Numbered from the stretch's first letter, positions 1 to 29,961 are shown. The stretch is 32,000 nt of DNA from Trichlorobacter lovleyi SZ (GCF_000020385.1 NC_010814.1:3510001-3542000), one strand, 5' to 3'. The notes: generated by a model not told the origin, from the sequence alone. Program-made: numbers and translations.

Positions 1-941
1 TGGTTAATCATGGTGAACGCAAGCGCATCCACCTCATCAAGGTACCCCTGCAGTGTTGTGTCGCGCATGGTGAGTGTGGCCCCAAGCTCACCGGTTGTGG
101 GGGCAATGGTCGCTGCAGCACCACCCCCGGCAGGAGTCACCTGGACTGAAAGCCGGGCACTACCGTCCGGCAGGGTTGTGCCACTGTTCACCAGAGAAAA
201 ACTACCGGCAGACGAGCCGCTGACCAGTGAGTAGGTACCGGTTGCATCAGTATAGCTGACATCCGTGGAGCCATCACTGTTTTCAGTAAAGCTGACCGCA
301 AGTTTCTCCGAAAGCTGCCGCACCAGATAATCCCGTTGATCCCGCATTTCATTGGCATTGCCACTTACCAGCTCTGTCAACTTTATCTGACCGTTCAGCC
401 GGGCAATGTCGGACAGCATGTTGTTCATTTCATCGGTCAGTGGTTGCAGGGACTCGTTCTGGGTCGTAATTGCATCGCTGACAGTGCCGGCAGCGTAATG
501 AAACTGGTCAGCCAGGGCCTGCCCCTGATTGAGGACTGCCTGCCGCTCGGCATTGCCGCTCGGATTCACCGACAGGTCCTGCCAGGAACTGAAATAGTCG
601 GAGATGGCTGCCCCCAGACCATCAAGTGCAACCTCATTAAAAATCGGCTCTATCTGCTGAAGTACCTCTGATTTTTTGGAATCGTAACCGGATGTAGTAC
701 TTGCATTAACCAGCTGCTTCTGCAGTAGTGCATCATAGTACCGCTCAACGGCTGCGACGTTGACACCTGAACCCAGTGGAAAACCGTTGTGAGTGGAAGC
801 CTCTGCAGTTTCAAGTACGATACGCTGGCGGGAATAACCGGGGGTGTTTACGTTGGCGATATTTTCACTCACCACCTCCGTAGCAACCTGGTATACCCTC
901 ATACCGGTTGTGCCAATTTGTAGTACCGCGCTGAGTCCCAT
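1..941 (-). CDS. flgK: Flagellar hook-associated protein 1 (FlgK), N-terminal ~313 codons. The 3' end runs off the window. It is not in the supplied ORF track because no stop codon lies in-window.
   Basis: Hand translation from ATG 941..939 gives MGLSAVLQIGTTGMRVYQVATEVVSENIANVNTPGYSRQRIVLETAEAS...FPLGSGVNVAAVERYYDALLQ. It carries the axial-protein N-terminal motif NIANVNTPGYSRQ. The frame appeared open to position 1 on a quick hand read; only about the first 75 codons (941..720) were checked base by base. GGGAGG lies 6 nt upstream, and the start is 1 nt after the flgN stop. Confidence 0.85.
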   Translation of the reverse strand, partial: MGLSAVLQIGTTGMRVYQVATEVVSENIANVNTPGYSRQRIVLETAEASTHNGFPLGSGVNVAAVERYYDALLQKQLVNASTTSGYDSKKSEVLQQIEPIFNEVALDGLGAAISDYFSSWQDLSVNPSGNAERQAVLNQGQALADQFHYAAGTVSDAITTQNESLQPLTDEMNNMLSDIARLNGQIKLTELVSGNANEMRDQRDYLVRQLSEKLAVSFTENSDGSTDVSYTDATGTYSLVSGSSAGSFSLVNSGTTLPDGSARLSVQVTPAGGGAAATIAPTTGELGATLTMRDTTLQGYLDEVDALAFTMIN

Positions 942-5201: not shown

Positions 5202-5978
5202 TTAGACTCGTGCCAGGTCGTTGACAGCCTTGGCAGCCATATCATCAAAACTGCGCACCACACGTTGACAGGTTTCAAAGTAGCGGCTGGCATCCACCAT
5301 CTGCACCATCTCCGCAATAGTATTAACATTGGATTGCTCCAGCGCCCCCTGAGCTACCGTGGTCAGCGGCCCGGCGGCCTGAACAGCGGTCCCGGCCGCC
5401 GGAACAAACAGTGTACTTGCAGTTTTGGTCAGCTGGTACGGTTTGGGGAAATCAAAGAGGGCCAGATTGGCCACCGGTTCACCATTGATCGTGATCCCCC
5501 CCTGGCTATCAACCACCGGCCTGCCTCCGCCGTCCTGACCTGCAACATCGATTCTGATCGGTTGTCCATCTTCGGGGCGCTCACCCGCCTTGGACAGCAC
5601 CTGATATCCATCTGCCGTTATCAGGGTACCGTCACTGGCAAGCCGGAAATTGCCCTGACGGGTATAGGCAACGCCTTCGGGTGTCCGTACGACAAAAAAG
5701 CCGTCCCCTTGCAGGGCAACATCGAGGGTGTTACCCGTCTGCACCAGGGTACCAGCAGAATAGTCGGTCAGCATCCGCTCCTGCAGCAGTACCGGATCAG
5801 CAGTCTGGCTCGGAGGGACAGCAGGGGGATTCCGGTTACCTGCCAGCACAGATTCAAAGGCCAGCCGGTCCTGTTTGAACCCGTTTGTCGAGGCATTTGC
5901 CAGATTTGAAGAAATCACGTCCAGGCGCTTCATGGCAGCCAGGTTGCCGGATAATGCCGAATACATACCACTGTTCAT
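5202..5978 (-). CDS. flgF: Proximal rod protein FlgF (FlgF/FlgG paralogue)
   Basis: It has axial-protein termini (MNSGMYSALSGNLAAMKRLDVISSNLANASTNGFK ... LEQSNVNTIAEMVQMVDASRYFE). It lies immediately upstream of flgG. Confidence 0.85.
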   Translation of the reverse strand: MNSGMYSALSGNLAAMKRLDVISSNLANASTNGFKQDRLAFESVLAGNRNPPAVPPSQTADPVLLQERMLTDYSAGTLVQTGNTLDVALQGDGFFVVRTPEGVAYTRQGNFRLASDGTLITADGYQVLSKAGERPEDGQPIRIDVAGQDGGGRPVVDSQGGITINGEPVANLALFDFPKPYQLTKTASTLFVPAAGTAVQAAGPLTTVAQGALEQSNVNTIAEMVQMVDASRYFETCQRVVRSFDDMAAKAVNDLARV

Positions 5979-16767: not shown

Positions 16768-17658
16768 TTAACGCTTGAGGTTAAGTACCTCCTGAGTCAT
16801 TTCATCAGCAGTGGTAATCGTCTTTGAGTTTGCAGAATAGGCCCTTTGGGTCAGAATCATCTTGACCATTTCAGTTGCCATATCAACATTGCTTAACTCG
16901 AGATTGTTTGAAAGGATTTTTTCGTTCGTACCGTTTGATCTCGTTACAATAGGGGTACCTGATCCACCAACAGCGTTGCCGGTTGATTTAAACAGCGTTG
17001 AACCTACTTTTTCAAGCCCCGGCGGGTTTGGTATCCTGGCCGTACCAAGTCCAATCGCCCCGGTTGTCGTTGGAACCGGCACAACACCATTGCCGGCATA
17101 ATACACCTTTGAGCTGTTGCCGTTATTGTCAGCATACAGCAGCTGCAGGCGGCCTTGAGCATCAACTCCTGCTACTTTTTGAAAATCCAATACGTTGCCT
17201 GATGTGTCGGTATAGGTTGACACGAAAACCACTGGCTGCCTGTTTTCATCCAAGGCGACATAGCCGTCCGGGTTGATCAGCGACCGGTTGTTGCTGTCGA
17301 TCCGCAAGGCACCTGCACGACTGTAGTAGGCATCGGTCACGGCGATTGCAGCAGCAGCAGTTGTTCCAGGCACCGCAAAGGAGAAAAATTTATCCCCCTG
17401 AATCGCAAGGTCGGTAACAACCGTTGTACTTTCAAGCGAGCCCTGGGAGAACAGGTTGTCAACCTTCTGGATCTGCACCCCGCGGCCCACCTGCGAGTTA
17501 TTCCCGATAGGCGCGGAAAGCAGATCAGAAAACAGCATCCTCCCGCCTTTGAATCCTATGGTATTCGAGTTGGACAGATTGTTGCCAATCACGTTCAGAC
17601 CTTCGGCATTTGCAAGCAAACCACTTACGCCGGTAAACATCGCTCCTGTTATACTCAT
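16768..17658 (-). CDS. flgE: Flagellar hook protein FlgE (short form, 296 aa)
   Basis: The N-terminus is MSITGAMFTGVSGLLANAEGLNVIGNNLSNSNTIGFKGGR and the C-terminus is LELSNVDMATEMVKMILTQRAYSANSKTITTADEM. It lies after flgD and the TIGR02530-like gene and before fliL. Confidence 0.85.
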   Translation of the reverse strand: MSITGAMFTGVSGLLANAEGLNVIGNNLSNSNTIGFKGGRMLFSDLLSAPIGNNSQVGRGVQIQKVDNLFSQGSLESTTVVTDLAIQGDKFFSFAVPGTTAAAAIAVTDAYYSRAGALRIDSNNRSLINPDGYVALDENRQPVVFVSTYTDTSGNVLDFQKVAGVDAQGRLQLLYADNNGNSSKVYYAGNGVVPVPTTTGAIGLGTARIPNPPGLEKVGSTLFKSTGNAVGGSGTPIVTRSNGTNEKILSNNLELSNVDMATEMVKMILTQRAYSANSKTITTADEMTQEVLNLKR

Positions 17659-17750: not shown

Positions 17751-18134
17751 TTATAGAATAACTGCTGAATCAATATTGGTAAAAACATTACCTTTCATCT
17801 GATTGCGATCCATGGCTGTCACCACAGTTCGATTTTTTACACTTACCACCAGCGCTGCCTCCCCCACCATAACCAGTGAGTCCTTGCCGCCTTTCTGGGC
17901 CACACTGTTTACCGCCCCTTCCAACTGTTGGAGTTGATCAGCACTGAAGCTGATATTACGGGCCTTAAGACGATCCTGAGCATGCTGGGAGAACCTGACC
18001 CCCTGGGTCTGATCCAGGACCTTTGAAAACGGGGTCTCGCCAACTGTTTGTGCTGCTTGCGGCTTGGCTGGTTGAGCCGGCTTGCCAACCGGCTGTGCCG
18101 GTCTTGGAAAATAGATCTGATCAATCGTGCTCAT
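17751..18134 (-). CDS. Small flagellar operon protein (TIGR02530-like, found between flgD and flgE in fla/che-type operons)
   Basis: 127 aa. The Pro/Gln/Ala-rich N-terminus is followed by VRFSQHAQDRLKARNISFSADQLQQLEGAV...LVVSVKNRTVVTAMD. This pattern and position are as I recall for the family. The ATG and the flgD TGA overlap as ATGA. Confidence 0.55.
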   Translation of the reverse strand: MSTIDQIYFPRPAQPVGKPAQPAKPQAAQTVGETPFSKVLDQTQGVRFSQHAQDRLKARNISFSADQLQQLEGAVNSVAQKGGKDSLVMVGEAALVVSVKNRTVVTAMDRNQMKGNVFTNIDSAVIL

Positions 18135-18802
18135 GCGGATTGAACTCTCATAACATCTGCAAACGGCACCAAAACAGCACCGATGGTGATATATGCCACA
18201 CCATTATCAAACGTGACACCGTCGGCCCGGCCTGTTGTGTAGGTAATGGCCTGCTGTGTCTCGCCTAACGCGTCGGTACCGCTGATCGAAAAGCTATACG
18301 CTCCTGCAGCCAGCACATTTCCCTGGGCATCCTTGCCATCCCACTGATAGGTTGCATCACCAACCTCCTGGGCCCCCAGATCAATCGTGCGTACAACCTG
18401 ACCTGACTCATTTTTAATGGTAAGCGTGGTACCTGTGGTAGCTGATGTTTTTTGATAACTCAGCGTTACCGGGTTGGTACCATCAAAGTTCAAACTATCT
18501 CCCAGCGCAACAATATCCTTACCAATCAGCCCCACGGAACTAAGGGCCAAACTGTTGCTTTGAGCGGTCAACAGATTATTTAATGCCGTTGCCGTATTGT
18601 ATGACTGCTCAACCTGGGTGAGCTGGGAAATTTGAGACAACATATCGTTCGTATCTTGCGGTGCGAGCGGATCCTGATATTGAATCTGCGCGATGAACAG
18701 CTTCAGAAAAGCATCCGTATCCATTCCAAACGTCTGCTTCATAGCATCAGAAGCTGCTGTTGCTGTTGAAGCTGACGTTACTCCACTAACCGTTGTTGAC
18801 AT
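18131..18802 (-). CDS. flgD: Hook capping/scaffold protein FlgD
   Basis: It contains the conserved FLKLFIAQIQYQDPLAPQDTNDMLSQISQLTQVEQ. It has a C-terminal Ig-like region (YQWDGKDAQGNVLAAGAYSF). Confidence 0.9.
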   Translation of the reverse strand: MSTTVSGVTSASTATAASDAMKQTFGMDTDAFLKLFIAQIQYQDPLAPQDTNDMLSQISQLTQVEQSYNTATALNNLLTAQSNSLALSSVGLIGKDIVALGDSLNFDGTNPVTLSYQKTSATTGTTLTIKNESGQVVRTIDLGAQEVGDATYQWDGKDAQGNVLAAGAYSFSISGTDALGETQQAITYTTGRADGVTFDNGVAYITIGAVLVPFADVMRVQSA

Positions 18803-18822: not shown

Positions 18823-20631
18823 TTAGAATCGCACATCAAGTGTAGATTGATACTGCGCCTCAATATACCGTATCGGAATCTCGGCCGTCTCTCTAAACAG
18901 GTTTCTTTCAACGCCTGTAACTCGCTGAGATTGCTGCTGAAGCGCCACCTGCTGACGCCAGTCACGAGTCTGTTGTGACGCACCGCCTCCCAAACCGGTT
19001 GACACATCAAACGAATCCATCTTGATATTTTGCCGGGCCAGGGTCTCTCTGAGATCATCAGCCTGCTGAAGAAGCGTCTCGCGCACCCCGCGATTCTCAG
19101 CAACGATTTCAATTTTGACGCCCTGTTTGGCATCCATATGCATACTCAACTGAATATCTCCCAAATGTTCCGGAGACAGCCTGAATGTGACACTCTGGTC
19201 TCCGCCCTGCTCACGCCCAGATGGTTTCAGATGGGTCACCACTTGTCGAGCAACCTGATCACTAACAGCTGCTTTTTCGCTGTCAACTGCCGGTGTTTCA
19301 CCTGCATACCCCTGAACAGCCATGAGATTTGGCTGCACTGTCGCTCCAAACTGATGTGCGGTTCCCGGCTCTGACTGCCCATGCTGCATACCGGTTTCAT
19401 CCAGACTGCTTACTGCCAGGCCTGGTATAACAACGTCACTCTCGGTGGTCCGGGACATCAAGATCGCAGGCGTACTACCAGTTTCTCTGGTTTCTCCTGA
19501 CACCTGTAGCGCCTGTTGTCCGGCAGTGGTTTGATTTGTCATCTGCACCGGACGTCCATAAACCAGCCATGCAATTGGGGACTTTGTTGTTTGCTCAGCC
19601 TCTACCCTGGCTTGCGGCTGGACCTCTACCCTGGTTTGCGGCTGGACCTCTACCCTGGTCTGCGGCTGGGCCTCTACCCTGGTCTGCGGCTGGACCTCTA
19701 CCCTGGCTTGCGGCTGGACCTCTACCCTGGTTTGCGGCTGGACCTCTACCCTGGTTTGCGGCTGGACCTCTACCCTGGTCTGCGGCTGGGCCTCTACCCT
19801 GGTCTGCGGCTGGACCTCTACCCTGGCTTGCGGCTGGACCTCTACCCTGGCTTGCGGCTGGACCTCTACCCTGGCTTGCGGCTGGACCTCTACCCTGGCT
19901 TGCGGCTGGACCTCTACCCTGGCTTGCGGCTGGACCTCTACCCTGGCTTGCGGCTGGACCTCTACCCTGGCTTGCGGCTGGACCTCTACCCTGGCTTGCG
20001 GCTGGACCTCTACCCTGGCTTGCGGCTGGACCTCTACCCTGGCTTGCGGCTGGACCTCTACCCTGGCTTGCGGCTGGACCTCTACCCTGGCTTGCGGCTG
20101 GACCTCTACCCTGGCTTGCGGCTGGACCTCTACCCTGGCTTGCGGCTGGACCTCTACCCTGGCTTGCGGCTGGACCTCTACCCTGGCTTGCGGCTGGACC
20201 TCTACCCTGGCTTGCGGCTGGACCTCTACCCTGGCTTGCGGCTGGACCTCTACCCTGGCTTGCGGCTGGACCTCCATCTCAGCAATTACGCCAACCGGCA
20301 TCGTATCTGCCGCCAAAGCGTCAGTACTATTTACAGCAGCTGAGATGTGCGCATCTGGTGTTGCTAACAAGGAGGCCAGCATCTGAAGAATGGCGGGGTC
20401 AAGAGTCATACCATTCTGTTCCTGCCGCTTTAGATCAAAGTCTACCTCAACACTTCCGGCATCCTTTTCCGACAACAGAACATCCTGTTTTTGAGTCTCT
20501 TGCACAACTGACGTGAGGAGTTGATCAAACCCTGAATTTCTGGCTACCAGATCTATCTGGCTTGCCCCTTCCAACTGCATACCGGCTGCCTGTACAGCCG
20601 CCGGCATCATCATAATCTGTCCTGCATCCAT
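18823..20631 (-). CDS. fliK: Hook-length control protein FliK, containing a 224-aa tandem-repeat insert
   Basis: The C-terminal Flg_hook-type domain is VTFRLSPEHLGDIQLSMHMDAKQGVKIEIVAENRGVRETLLQQADDLRETLARQNI. The centre is Gln/Pro-rich. It lies between the YlxF-like gene and flgD. The Shine-Dalgarno is GGAAGGAGG. Confidence 0.85.
   Translation of the reverse strand: MDAGQIMMMPAAVQAAGMQLEGASQIDLVARNSGFDQLLTSVVQETQKQDVLLSEKDAGSVEVDFDLKRQEQNGMTLDPAILQMLASLLATPDAHISAAVNSTDALAADTMPVGVIAEMEVQPQARVEVQPQARVEVQPQARVEVQPQARVEVQPQARVEVQPQARVEVQPQARVEVQPQARVEVQPQARVEVQPQARVEVQPQARVEVQPQARVEVQPQARVEVQPQARVEVQPQARVEVQPQARVEVQPQARVEVQPQARVEVQPQARVEVQPQTRVEAQPQTRVEVQPQTRVEVQPQTRVEVQPQARVEVQPQTRVEAQPQTRVEVQPQTRVEVQPQARVEAEQTTKSPIAWLVYGRPVQMTNQTTAGQQALQVSGETRETGSTPAILMSRTTESDVVIPGLAVSSLDETGMQHGQSEPGTAHQFGATVQPNLMAVQGYAGETPAVDSEKAAVSDQVARQVVTHLKPSGREQGGDQSVTFRLSPEHLGDIQLSMHMDAKQGVKIEIVAENRGVRETLLQQADDLRETLARQNIKMDSFDVSTGLGGGASQQTRDWRQQVALQQQSQRVTGVERNLFRETAEIPIRYIEAQYQSTLDVRF
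19601..20272 (-). repeat. Tandem array of 28 x 24 bp (minus-strand unit GTCCAGCCGCAAGCCAGGGTAGAG = VQPQ[A/T]RVE), in frame within fliK
   Basis: Direct counting shows that units 19817..20272 (19 copies) are nucleotide-identical. Positions 19601..19840 form two 120-bp five-unit super-repeats that differ at one base (C 19611 vs T 19731). The variant units encode QTR and AQPQTR. Confidence 0.97.
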
Positions 20632-20709: not shown

Positions 20710-21264
20710 CTACTTTTCGCCGCGCTTTCGCAGGTTCTCGTTTACCCAGCGAATGGTTCGCGGCTGATTAAGGTTGGGCACCAGCTTTGCAACAGTCTTG
20801 GTATCGAGCCGGTCCAGCAGCAGCTTGACCTCGTCCTCTTCCATCTTGTCCAGCAAATCAGCGGACTGAGCCGCCTTCATGGTCTTGAACAGCTTGACCA
20901 TTTTGGTAACCCGTTCACTCTGGGCCTGCTTGCGACGTTCTTCTTCAGCCTTCAACATTTCCTCATAACTCTTTTTTGTCTCTTCCATCGCCTTCAACTG
21001 GGCATCAATCCTGGCTCCCATCTTTTTCAGCTCTTCTTCTTTGGCAGCCAGTGCAGCTTCCTTTTCAGCCAGCTGTTGCCGTCGCGCCTCCTGAATCGCC
21101 CGTTCTTCACGGGCAGCACGGGTAGGCGGAACCGGGTCTCCCTGCGTCCCGGTCTGAGGGGTGCGGATCGGCTCTGTTGTGCCTTGCGATGCAGTGAGGG
21201 CAACAGTTGCAACGGTCCCCAGGCTGCATGCCATAGCTATAATTGATATCCAACGTTTGTTCAC
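20710..21264 (-). CDS. YlxF/MotE-like flagellar protein with a coiled coil and an MgtE-N-like C-terminal helical domain
   Basis: It has a hydrophobic N-terminus (WISIIAMACSLGTVATVALTA), a charged coiled coil (EERAIQEARRQQLAEKEAALAAKEEELKK) and the segment MVKLFKTMKAAQSADLLDKMEEDEVKLLLDRLDTKTVAKL. It occupies the fliJ-fliK slot that ylxF occupies in Bacillus. I re-called the start at GTG 21264 (AGGAG 7 nt upstream). Confidence 0.5.
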   Translation of the reverse strand: MNKRWISIIAMACSLGTVATVALTASQGTTEPIRTPQTGTQGDPVPPTRAAREERAIQEARRQQLAEKEAALAAKEEELKKMGARIDAQLKAMEETKKSYEEMLKAEEERRKQAQSERVTKMVKLFKTMKAAQSADLLDKMEEDEVKLLLDRLDTKTVAKLVPNLNQPRTIRWVNENLRKRGEK

Positions 21265-21268
21265 GGCA

Positions 21269-21712
21269 CTACTCCTGCCCTTTCTTCTGCGTGGCAATTT
21301 CATCCAGCAACAGGCCTTCTTTGTAGGCCTGCTCCTTACGAAACTCTTCTTTCCGTTTTTCTTTCAGGCGCTCCATTACTTTTTTTTCTTTGGTAGCCTG
21401 CACCAGATCCTCACGGCGGTCCTCAAGCACCCGGTCAAGAGTCTCAATCCGCCGTTGCTGTTCTTTCATTTCCTCCCGTTTACGCGCGAAAAAATCAGCA
21501 TAAAGCTGCATTTCATAGATTGAATTGATCTCCTGCTGACGTTGACTGAACTCTTCCGCCAGCTGGGCAGCCTCCGCTTTTTCCTGTTCCAGCTTATCTG
21601 CGGCAGCATCCAGATCCTGCTTGGCCAGGGCGAACTCCTGCTTGCGCAATTTCTCCAGCTCAGCTCTGTAGTTGAGAACCTGTTGTAGCTCAAACTGCTT
21701 TTTTGCCGCCAT
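21269..21712 (-). CDS. fliJ: Flagellar export chaperone/stalk protein FliJ
   Basis: 147-aa highly charged coiled coil (FELQQVLNYRAELEKLRKQEFALAKQDL...). It lies immediately after fliI. Confidence 0.8.
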   Translation of the reverse strand: MAAKKQFELQQVLNYRAELEKLRKQEFALAKQDLDAAADKLEQEKAEAAQLAEEFSQRQQEINSIYEMQLYADFFARKREEMKEQQRRIETLDRVLEDRREDLVQATKEKKVMERLKEKRKEEFRKEQAYKEGLLLDEIATQKKGQE

Positions 21713-27706: not shown

Positions 27707-27816
27707 TTACAGCAAACATGTGTAAACCAGGCAATATCAGGGGAGTTGCGGGGCGATTCACCCCAAAGCAGCCAGAGGAGCGTGTCGTTATTTTGACAAA
27801 TACATTTTTTTTGACG

Positions 27817-29961
27817 CTACTTTTTCTTTGACGGGGCCAAAGCAGGGCGGGAAAGTTTGTCATCTTCAAGGGCCTGGCGGGCAAGACGCTGCCAATCCGG
27901 ATCCTTGCCTTCATTCAGCACTCGCTCAAACAGGGTGCGAGCCTGCTGACTGCGACCGTCCAACGCAGCCAGCTCACCAAGTTTATAAAGAAACTGATCC
28001 TTACGCTCTTTTGAAACCGTCTTTAAACCGGCTTCCAGCAACACGGCAGCCGCACTGCGTTCTCCGAGCGCCTGACGGGAGCTTGCCGCAATGTAATAGG
28101 CATCCCCCATCAGAACAGGGACCTCTTTCATATCTTTGACAGCCGACAGATAGAGCTCCATTGCCTGGGCAGAGCGGGAATATTCCTTGCTGTCCCAGAG
28201 CGCGCGGCCTAAATAATAATAACTGGCCGGAAAGGCCGCCTGTTCCTGTTTATTCAGGAGCCAGGAAAGACCGGTCCGGACAGCCGGCAGCTCATGCGCA
28301 GCAAACTGAATTGCCCCCAAACGCTCACGAGCCCAGCGTGTCTGGGCATGGGCAGGGTTACGCTGCAAAAAACCCTGCAACACCTTGCGAGCCATCATGG
28401 TGTCACCCAGTAGTTCCGCCTGGTCAGCGATCTGCAGCGTCAAGTAGGGGACATTATCCCCACCTACCCACGGCCGCTCCAGCAAACCGCTGTATAACGC
28501 TATCAGATCCAGAGGCCGCCCGGCTTTTTCAAACGCTGCAGAGACGGCGGGCAAAAAACCGGGGTTCTTTACTGCCGTAGCCAGAAATTCTTGATTATCC
28601 GTTACCAATCGAATCAATCCAGCCGGATTATTAGCCCAGAGCACACCCTGAAACACCAGCGCAACCAGATCTTCGCGAATATCACGAATGACCGTACTGT
28701 ATACCCCGGTGGGAAAACGTTTCTGATAGGTTATTACTAAATCCAGCGCCGTGTCGGCCGGCCCGTTGATCGCTTCCAGCAGGGCATGCTTAAACGTGGT
28801 CTCTTCCCGCAAATCAAAATCGGCGGTGTTGGCGGCAATTTTAGCGTAGGTGGCACCTAATGCCTGATAATCATCAGGTGTAGCCTCAAGAAAAGCCCGA
28901 TCTGCCAGTTTCATGATGGCTATCTGGTGAGCCTTGTTATCCTTGAAAGCAGTGGAGACGTTATTGTAAATTGCCAGCGCATCTCCTTCGCCTCCCTGAC
29001 GGGCCAACACATCCGCCATACGGACCAGCAGTACCGGCGCATACTTTTTATCGGCATTGGAGGCAATCAGCCGTGCCAGCAGTTGCCGTCCGCCCGGCAG
29101 GTCTCCGCTACGGGCAATACTATCACCATAGTAAAACATGATAGCCGGGTTCATTGTCAGAAAGTCCTGCCATTGCCGGGCAGCCTCACGAAAGGTTTCC
29201 AGCGCCGGCCCATACTTCTGCAAACGGTACTGTGCCTCTGCCAGCCGGTAGAGCGCAAGCGGACGGATCCGGGACTGCCTGGCTGCAAACGGGGTAAAGG
29301 CATCTTCGGCAGCAGTCAGCTTACCCTTATAGAGCGCCCCTTCCGCAGCAAGAAACAGGCGTTGCTCATCATCCGGCAACAAGGCCTTGAGCAGGTTCCG
29401 GTCTGTAGGCACAAAAGGGATCTCCGGCTTGAGTGGAGGGTCAAAATTACTGAGTAGCTTTGCTGCACCATTCCTGATCCTCTCCCTGCCGGGCAGCGCA
29501 GGGTGGGCTGCTGAACCGCCAAAAAGCGGGCCGACATCCAGAGAAAGCGCCGGCAGACCGTCAACATGCACCATTCGCCAGCCGACGCGGTTGGCGGCAA
29601 TGGCAAAGGTCAACAGAGCGTCATTTCCGCGCTGAGAGACCAGCACCCCCCCGATATTGCTGTCTGAGTAGCGGCGCAATGACCTGAACGGTGCGCCGGA
29701 AGTATCGCTGAATCTGATCCTGAGCCGATTGCCAGGGATTCTTGATACCCTGAAATGTGGTTCTTCAGCCAACTTAACGGTGATACGGGTGAAGGAGGAT
29801 TTGGGACGGATCTCTATCCGGTGGATCTGATTCTGAATTAACGCATCAGCACGGCGTGGGGATACAATCAAGGCAAGGAGCAGACAGAGCAGCAGGGCAA
29901 CACTGCCATACGGTGCCCTACGCAGCTGGAGCGCTGCTATCAGACTGACGGCAATCGGCAT
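27817..29961 (-). CDS. Large secreted/envelope protein: signal-like N-terminus, AMIN-like beta domain and a long TPR-like helical-repeat region. Function unknown.
   Basis: 714-aa uninterrupted ORF. The N-terminal hydrophobic stretch is VALLLCLLLALIVSPRRADA. The segment IHRIEIRPKSSFTRITVKLAEEPHFRVSRIPGNRLRIRFSDT resembles an AMIN domain. There are many 34-aa-like A/Y/L-periodic helices (ALYRLAEAQYRLQKYGPALETFREAARQ; FLYKLGELAALDGRSQQARTLFERVL). The start overlaps the upstream gene by 22 nt. Confidence 0.75.
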   Translation of the reverse strand: MPIAVSLIAALQLRRAPYGSVALLLCLLLALIVSPRRADALIQNQIHRIEIRPKSSFTRITVKLAEEPHFRVSRIPGNRLRIRFSDTSGAPFRSLRRYSDSNIGGVLVSQRGNDALLTFAIAANRVGWRMVHVDGLPALSLDVGPLFGGSAAHPALPGRERIRNGAAKLLSNFDPPLKPEIPFVPTDRNLLKALLPDDEQRLFLAAEGALYKGKLTAAEDAFTPFAARQSRIRPLALYRLAEAQYRLQKYGPALETFREAARQWQDFLTMNPAIMFYYGDSIARSGDLPGGRQLLARLIASNADKKYAPVLLVRMADVLARQGGEGDALAIYNNVSTAFKDNKAHQIAIMKLADRAFLEATPDDYQALGATYAKIAANTADFDLREETTFKHALLEAINGPADTALDLVITYQKRFPTGVYSTVIRDIREDLVALVFQGVLWANNPAGLIRLVTDNQEFLATAVKNPGFLPAVSAAFEKAGRPLDLIALYSGLLERPWVGGDNVPYLTLQIADQAELLGDTMMARKVLQGFLQRNPAHAQTRWARERLGAIQFAAHELPAVRTGLSWLLNKQEQAAFPASYYYLGRALWDSKEYSRSAQAMELYLSAVKDMKEVPVLMGDAYYIAASSRQALGERSAAAVLLEAGLKTVSKERKDQFLYKLGELAALDGRSQQARTLFERVLNEGKDPDWQRLARQALEDDKLSRPALAPSKKK

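Follow-up and report, generated by a model that had tools for sequence, protein, structure and literature searches.

FliK of the flagellum and YscP of the injectisome are secreted rulers of hook and needle length, respectively. Salmonella FliK variants of 363-785 amino acids (aa) lead to tightly controlled hooks of 42-135 nm, with 0.2 nm per inserted residue, and hooks of non-optimal length impair motility (PMC6126814). The domain map of this protein comprises an N-terminal region, a spacer and the T3S4 domain (PMC6972891). In Yersinia, needle length is linear with the size of YscP, whose repeat number varies naturally, repeats of 14, 25 and 46 aa giving proteins of 452, 515 and 538 aa (PMC3469391). 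The molecular-ruler model has so far been based mainly on engineered insertions and deletions. The present analysis concerns the fliK gene of Trichlorobacter lovleyi strain SZ, found at positions 18823..20631 (minus strand) of a 32,000-nucleotide stretch of the genome (NC_010814.1:3510001-3542000, hereafter the window), which codes for a 602-aa protein containing an in-frame array of 28 units of 24 bp. No description of natural tandem-repeat variation in FliK was found in full-text literature searches. The genome paper of strain SZ makes no mention of flagella (PMC3403914); its flagellar genes are expressed and regulated (PMC11972089).

The array is a minisatellite which spans positions 19603..20274 (minus strand) in codon register and codes for (EVQPQ[A/T]RV)n over FliK residues 120-343, that is 224 of the 602 residues (37%). 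Two of its units read EAQPQTRV, with Ala for Val at position 2. Tandem Repeats Finder reports a single strong array in the window (19599..20274, period 24, 28.2 copies, 98% matches, 0 indels, score 1261). Cutting 19601..20272 into 24-mers yields 28 units of four sequence types (21 + 3 + 2 + 2) whose order is A19 B C D D A B C D A, type A being present 21 times and types B, C and D making up the remaining seven. Units 1-19 are identical (19817..20272, 456 bp) and form, together with partial units, a perfect period-24 tract at 19805..20274 (minus strand). The opposite end of the array features two 120-bp super-repeats of five units each, 19601..19720 and 19721..19840 (minus strand), which differ at one base, position 19611. 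The C-side boundary is a degenerate terminal unit, EAEQTTKS (19579..19602, minus strand), that is kept in all relatives, as seen in the alignment with the related FliK P0001 and in loci L016, L018 and L021. The original prediction, made from the DNA alone, had described 28 in-frame 24-bp copies, 19 of them identical, two super-repeats with one mismatch and a repeat peptide over 224 residues of the ORF (open reading frame) 18823..20631, all of which were recovered. The span that it gave, 19601..20272, places the array correctly, with unit boundaries that lie 2 nt off the codon frame, a harmless shift.

No secondary structure is predicted for the array, whose per-residue confidence (pLDDT) in the AlphaFold2 (AF2) model is 38-52, and each 8-residue unit carries one proline. 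Pfam matches of the array to Bactofilin, UreD and PARP are artefacts of periodicity: no single stretch passes and the AF2 model has no strands there. A beta-solenoid reading of the array was set aside for the same two reasons. Two plus-strand ORFs, 19516..20343 (275 aa) and 19536..20516 (326 aa), are stop-free frames of the repeat and not genes.

The 602-aa ORF is a member of the FliK/T3S4 family by its domain, its fold and its gene context, an assignment drawn from the ORF listing, Pfam, the AF2 fold and the Geobacterales relatives that agrees with the original prediction. Residues 473-549 (18985..19215, minus strand) correspond to the T3S4 or Flg_hook substrate-specificity-switch domain and match PF02120 with E = 5e-19 (68 bits for a cut-off of 29.8). 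A profile of 34 FliK homologues matches 2rrl_A, the structure of the Salmonella FliK C-terminal domain. The AF2 model has a low confidence overall (mean pLDDT 46.5), with an alpha/beta fold predicted at moderate confidence for residues 480-571 (pLDDT 60-84), and its top PDB matches are 2RRL (E = 2.5e-5) and 5CUK, the PscP switch domain. The array is separated from the T3S4 domain by a 129-residue linker and is preceded by N-terminal residues 1-119 (20275..20631, minus strand). In the alignment of 34 Geobacterales FliKs, M1 and P10 of this region (N-terminus MDAGQIMMMP) are invariant and Q5, I6, M9, F35 and L39 nearly so. By analogy, residues 1-119 would hold the export signal and the hook/cap-binding part, and the spacing F35-x-x-x-L39 may correspond to the gate-recognition motif of early flagellar substrates, with which it is compatible. 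Conserved columns are almost all found at the two ends of FliK while its central region is poorly conserved across Geobacterales (mean column identity 34%). FliK minus the array counts 378 aa.

Related loci were retrieved from public assemblies using FlgD and FliJ, both in their exact form and as close variants. More than 60 contigs were read and ~30 were inspected in sequence, the informative ones originating from ENA, JGI, NCBI and Logan; the genome-contig scan of the locus gave two loci. The evidence for turnover consists of comparisons between these assemblies. Complete arrays have 28 units in the window, 31 units in L018 (JGI contig Ga0074199_1000001, 1.0 Mb) and 39 units in L021 (complete genome CP058409.1, 3322897-3331571), and the respective FliK proteins have 602, 627 and 691 aa. 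In L018 the units fall into seven nucleotide types, and no more than 5 identical ones stand in a row.

The C-side unit strings differ in every informative strain: ..DDABCDA in the window, ..AAEDAEDDA in L022, ..DDDFFFFG in L023, ..HAAADDG in L024, ..ADDDA in L025, ..BCA in L001 and ..DABCDA in L002. L001 shows 3 mismatches in 7470 nt outside the array (99.96% identity) and yet lacks unit 27. L035 and L018 are ~99.9% identical, with one D unit fewer in the former, which implies an array of ~30 units rather than 31 when combined with the N-side contig of the same sample. L002 differs from the window by a single base, unit 22 being of type A instead of type D; it was not counted as a copy-number change, a point change, a conversion and a 3-unit deletion being all possible. 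The N-side units are also variable: Ala-type in the window, L012-L014 and L015, Thr-type in L008/L009 (99.3-99.7% flank identity), and of other synonymous variants in L011. All unit changes seen keep the frame, with units of 24 bp and now and then of 27 bp, and leave the functional parts of FliK on either side undisturbed. The array therefore evolves, in copy number as in composition, far more rapidly than the sequence around it. With its high-identity units of a length multiple of three, variable among strains in number and order, the array is a hypervariable coding minisatellite (variable number tandem repeat, VNTR). The recent turnover and the permanently open frame that had been anticipated from the window are both borne out by these strains.

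In the contig L034, positions 1..260 feature a mixture of 24-bp and 27-bp units (VEVQQQAK, VEVQPQTK, VEVQPQATK), that is 8- and 9-residue units. Unit length can thus vary in frame.

Comparison of more distant lineages reveals a different facet of the same process. Position 7 of the unit is Arg in every window unit and Lys in every unit of L018 and L021. The flanks of the window are 87-89% identical to those of L018 and L021, and identity within the arrays is 94-98%. Because all the units of a lineage share the lineage-specific Arg or Lys, the arrays have undergone concerted evolution, the whole array having been turned over since the lineages split. A sister clade is found at ~80% nucleotide identity. 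Its member P0001 has two units only, VEAPVQTR and VETPVQTR, in a FliK of 396 aa whose two flanks are joined within ~50 nt, while L016, with a flank 92% identical in nucleotides to P0001, has at least five units before its contig breaks. L021, labelled Trichlorobacter lovleyi, is ~89% identical in nucleotides to the window across the flagellar operon and ~91-94% identical to L018; on the evidence of this operon, strain SZ and L021 probably belong to separate species.

Alignment of FliK orthologues, which the original prediction had put forward as a way to see if the array is lineage-specific, shows that it is specific of this clade and variable, the sister lineage having 2 units and most other Geobacterales FliKs no array. 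Most of the FliKs found in this order have ~495-555 aa and a centre without repeats in which Q, A, V and T abound; the array appears to stand in for much of this centre. Tandem repeats of unrelated sequence occupy the central region in at least four further FliKs of the order: NQExTKV in ~11 copies (P0014), KTEAAP[A/V] in 9 copies (P0025), a unit of ~79-105 aa in 3 copies (P0035) and one of 63 aa in ~5 copies (P0036). Their presence supports the idea that the length of the ruler spacer, rather than its sequence, would be what matters. Ruler spacers built of repeats seem to recur in Geobacterales.

The reading that accounts best for these observations, and that we consider likely, is that a fast-evolving in-frame minisatellite forms most of the FliK ruler spacer in T. 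lovleyi and its close relatives and is held in a mutation-selection balance around a long ruler. Units of 24 bp are gained, lost and homogenised so that FliK length differs between genomes (396, 602, 627 and 691 aa). The pattern fits with slippage during replication and with unequal recombination or gene conversion among identical units, the mechanisms expected from general knowledge. Blocks appear to have been duplicated in addition to single units, to judge from the super-repeat of the window and the multi-unit motifs of L021, and the run of 19 identical units points to recent expansion or homogenisation. The array, predicted to be disordered and bearing prolines, should be suited for export. 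It would hold the N-terminal region apart from the C-terminal T3S4 domain that flips FlhB, and each extra unit would, through the ruler mechanism, postpone the switch and make the hook longer. With the Salmonella value of 0.2 nm per residue this would amount to ~1.6 nm per unit and to ~45 nm for the whole array, and to more per unit if the repeat is extended rather than helical. Extrapolation from Salmonella yields purely illustrative hook lengths of ~94, 99 and 112 nm for the FliKs of 602, 627 and 691 aa, and of ~53 nm for that of 396 aa. Hook length may thus scale with copy number, by analogy with the rulers studied experimentally. The most likely regime would be a mutation-selection balance with a long ruler of ~28-39 units in the T. 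lovleyi group, resulting in standing variation of hook length between strains rather than in a proven on-demand switch. This balance is favoured because the three resolved arrays of the group all have 28-39 units and because the N-side order is stable in the L018 lineage.

The first alternative to weigh is that the assembler created the array, or at least set its number of identical units. A perfect repeat of 456 bp is unresolvable with short reads and, whichever side they come from, nearly all the short-read contigs inspected stop at the array or within it: fliJ-side contigs penetrate it by 28-430 nt, most flgD-side contigs stop 24-414 nt into it and one stops just short of it. Long contigs that end inside the array include L028 (Ga0209749_1000005, 738 kb), L025 (DAIRQH010000001.1, 335 kb) and L034 (JBNLSA010000029.1, 171 kb). 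The warning about assembly that accompanied the original prediction was thus apt. Yet the breaks themselves imply that dozens of independent samples contain an array exceeding the word length of assembly, which is 31-141 nt as suggested by the Logan and k141 contigs. Arrays of 31 and 39 units are resolved in two other assemblies, and the first 11-18 units of L018 are reproduced exactly in four other samples. The SZ genome was assembled from 454 reads and Sanger reads averaging 949 bp, with 25-fold coverage in total (PMC3403914), and the 672-bp array can be spanned by single Sanger reads of that mean length. The concern that copy number was mis-estimated is, for strain SZ, largely answered by these reads and by the two independent assemblies in which arrays of comparable size are resolved. 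The array is not an artefact, and an origin of its identical units in the assembler is extremely improbable. Its effect on assemblies is real: contigs of up to 738 kb end there, and the locus is systematically missed by assemblies and gene catalogues alike. Protein searches of a catalogue of 5.8 billion proteins returned no full-length array-bearing FliK, because the array terminates contigs. Many strong hits of these searches were unrelated repeat proteins rich in Q, P, E and V that matched residues ~115-350 only and were discarded as low-complexity.

The two other alternatives accept the array and differ on what it does. An adaptive contingency locus, as the original prediction had envisaged, would change copy number at high frequency within a clone, and the resulting mixture of hook lengths would be selected as bet-hedging or as rapid tuning of motility. 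The 456-bp perfect tract lends itself ideally to slippage and unequal exchange, one-unit differences are found between strains that are at least 99.9% identical, every informative strain has its own unit order, and hook length affects motility performance in Salmonella (PMC6126814). However, the 28-39 units of all three resolved T. lovleyi-group assemblies suggest a constrained optimum, the N-side order is stable in four samples of the L018 lineage, and the data compare assemblies rather than members of one population. In classical contingency loci a phenotype is turned on or off, whereas no discrete states are evident for the FliK array. We regard this alternative as unlikely. Copy numbers as high as 28, 31 and 39 agree with stabilising selection for a long ruler no less well than with a dial that turns freely. 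Similarly speculative, and improbable at present, is the broader proposal that T. lovleyi-like Geobacterales carry a heritable and quantitatively mutable hook length, with steps of ~1.6-3 nm, which is selected on the mechanics of swimming and reorientation in sediment pores. If true, it would define a contingency locus of the size-variable kind, in which the dimension of a nanomachine is what varies, and the independent repeat families of other Geobacterales FliKs would hint at a general path by which evolution tunes the ruler. At the other extreme, the array could be a neutral spacer whose length drifts by mutation pressure in a disordered region, hook length being set elsewhere in FliK or only loosely. 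The predicted disorder of the region, the low conservation of FliK centres across Geobacterales and the sister lineage that apparently works with 2 units are in line with such drift. It is nevertheless difficult to reconcile with the linear change of hook or needle length caused, in every tested system, by insertions between the N-terminus and the T3S4 domain. The motif E-x-Q-P-Q-x-[RK]-x is also kept, only in-frame units are seen and copy number remains high in three lineages. Neutral drift of the spacer is accordingly held to be rather improbable.

Several points weigh against the preferred reading of a long ruler kept in mutation-selection balance. A sole finished assembly underlies the count of 28 units, and for P0001 the two units were read from one SPAdes contig of very low coverage. 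One-unit differences are read at contig ends, the weakest part of assemblies, although their junctions are not derivable from the reference array. The exact conservation of 11-18 N-side units in four samples of the L018 lineage implies that turnover is not extremely fast. All the functional statements for this clade are extrapolated from Salmonella and Yersinia. The value of 0.2 nm per residue was obtained with alpha-helical inserts in Salmonella, and a disordered repeat with prolines may scale differently or be partly slack.

The genetic environment of fliK is that of a complete flagellar cluster, the whole window being occupied by one long minus-strand series of genes. It codes for flgB/C, fliE-fliJ, an MgtE_N-like protein, fliK, flgD, a TIGR02530 protein, a flgE of 296 aa, fliL-fliR, flhB, flhA, flhF, flhG, fliA, flgF-flgJ and flgN. 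fliK is localized downstream of fliJ and of the MgtE_N-like gene and is followed by flgD, and the order fliI-fliJ-(MgtE_N-like)-fliK-flgD-(TIGR02530)-flgE-fliL-fliM... is identical in all related loci. The hook cap gene flgD (18131..18802, minus strand) and fliJ (21269..21712, minus strand) code for proteins identical to ACD97003.1 and ACD97006.1 of T. lovleyi SZ, respectively, and the TIGR02530 protein is identical to ACD97002.1 of the same strain. The small MgtE_N-like flagellar operon protein encoded upstream of fliK (20710..21303, minus strand) was recognised by a weak MgtE_N match, and the position of its gene is kept in L008-L015, L018 and L021. Its longest ORF shares 35 nt with the end of fliJ while the calls in related loci start later (184 aa); its true start is probably downstream of 21303. 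Exact-sequence look-ups of the FliK, FliI and MgtE_N-like proteins gave no match, which for FliI is probably due to a different called start codon (432 aa called versus an ORF of 439 aa).

The hook-protein gene that follows flgD (16768..17658, minus strand) codes for just 296 aa, with the N- and C-terminal motifs of rod and hook proteins and a weak D1 match. A minimal hook subunit thus coexists with an unusually long FliK ruler. The segment 6752..9003 (minus strand) codes for flhF, a GTPase of the SRP54 type, and a flhG-like MinD/ParA ATPase, with fliA coming next. flhF and flhG provide the control of placement and number typical of polar flagellates, which bears on a possible relation of hook length to swimming. 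Two minor, low-scoring tandem duplications are found elsewhere in the window, at 5364..5406 (21 bp x 2.1, in a flgF-like gene) and at 27801..27833 (17 bp x 1.9, close to the start of a gene for a TPR protein).

In this clade, nature provides an allelic series of a single ruler, with 2, at least 5, 28, ~30, 31 and 39 units and FliKs of 396-691 aa, in which the two ends of the protein are conserved and only the spacer changes. The series makes testable the ruler law for a disordered, proline-bearing spacer and the extent of natural variation in hook length. It also gives access to any effect of such variation on the motility of a flagellate, probably polar, in sediments and bioreactors, where T. 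lovleyi is relevant for dechlorination and nitrate ammonification.

Among described systems, phage tape-measure proteins share with the FliK array the principle that the length of a protein sets the length of a tube, and their internal duplications or deletions alter it. They belong to an unrelated family with a different fold and mechanism, and stay inside the tail tube instead of acting as a secreted intermittent ruler. In-frame VNTRs are also found in bacterial surface proteins such as staphylococcal protein A, with its 24-bp octapeptide region Xr, and ClfA with its Ser-Asp stalk. Their short, near-identical in-frame units, variable in number and order among strains, and a role of spacer length over sequence resemble what is observed or proposed in T. 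lovleyi. However, Xr and ClfA repeats set the reach of a wall-anchored protein, whereas the FliK array sits in a secreted measuring device and its length would be copied into the size of another polymer, the FlgE hook.

Salmonella FliK is of the same family and layout, and insertions or deletions in its spacer change hook length. Its variants are man-made and the wild-type protein (405 aa) has no tandem array, unlike the natural length series of T. lovleyi. YscP is the closest precedent, as a secreted T3SS (type III secretion system) ruler with a C-terminal T3S4 domain and strain-variable internal repeats. It operates in an injectisome with few copies of long units while T. lovleyi FliK belongs to a flagellum and carries 28-39 copies of 8 aa. 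The YscP ruler is helical; the spacer of T. lovleyi FliK is predicted to be disordered, with a proline in every unit. Near-perfect nucleotide identity of the units and their reshuffling from strain to strain distinguish the T. lovleyi FliK array and are not reported for YscP. Variation of repeat number in a ruler was thus known from YscP, and what the T. lovleyi locus adds is a flagellar ruler with a true short-unit minisatellite that is reshuffled between strains.

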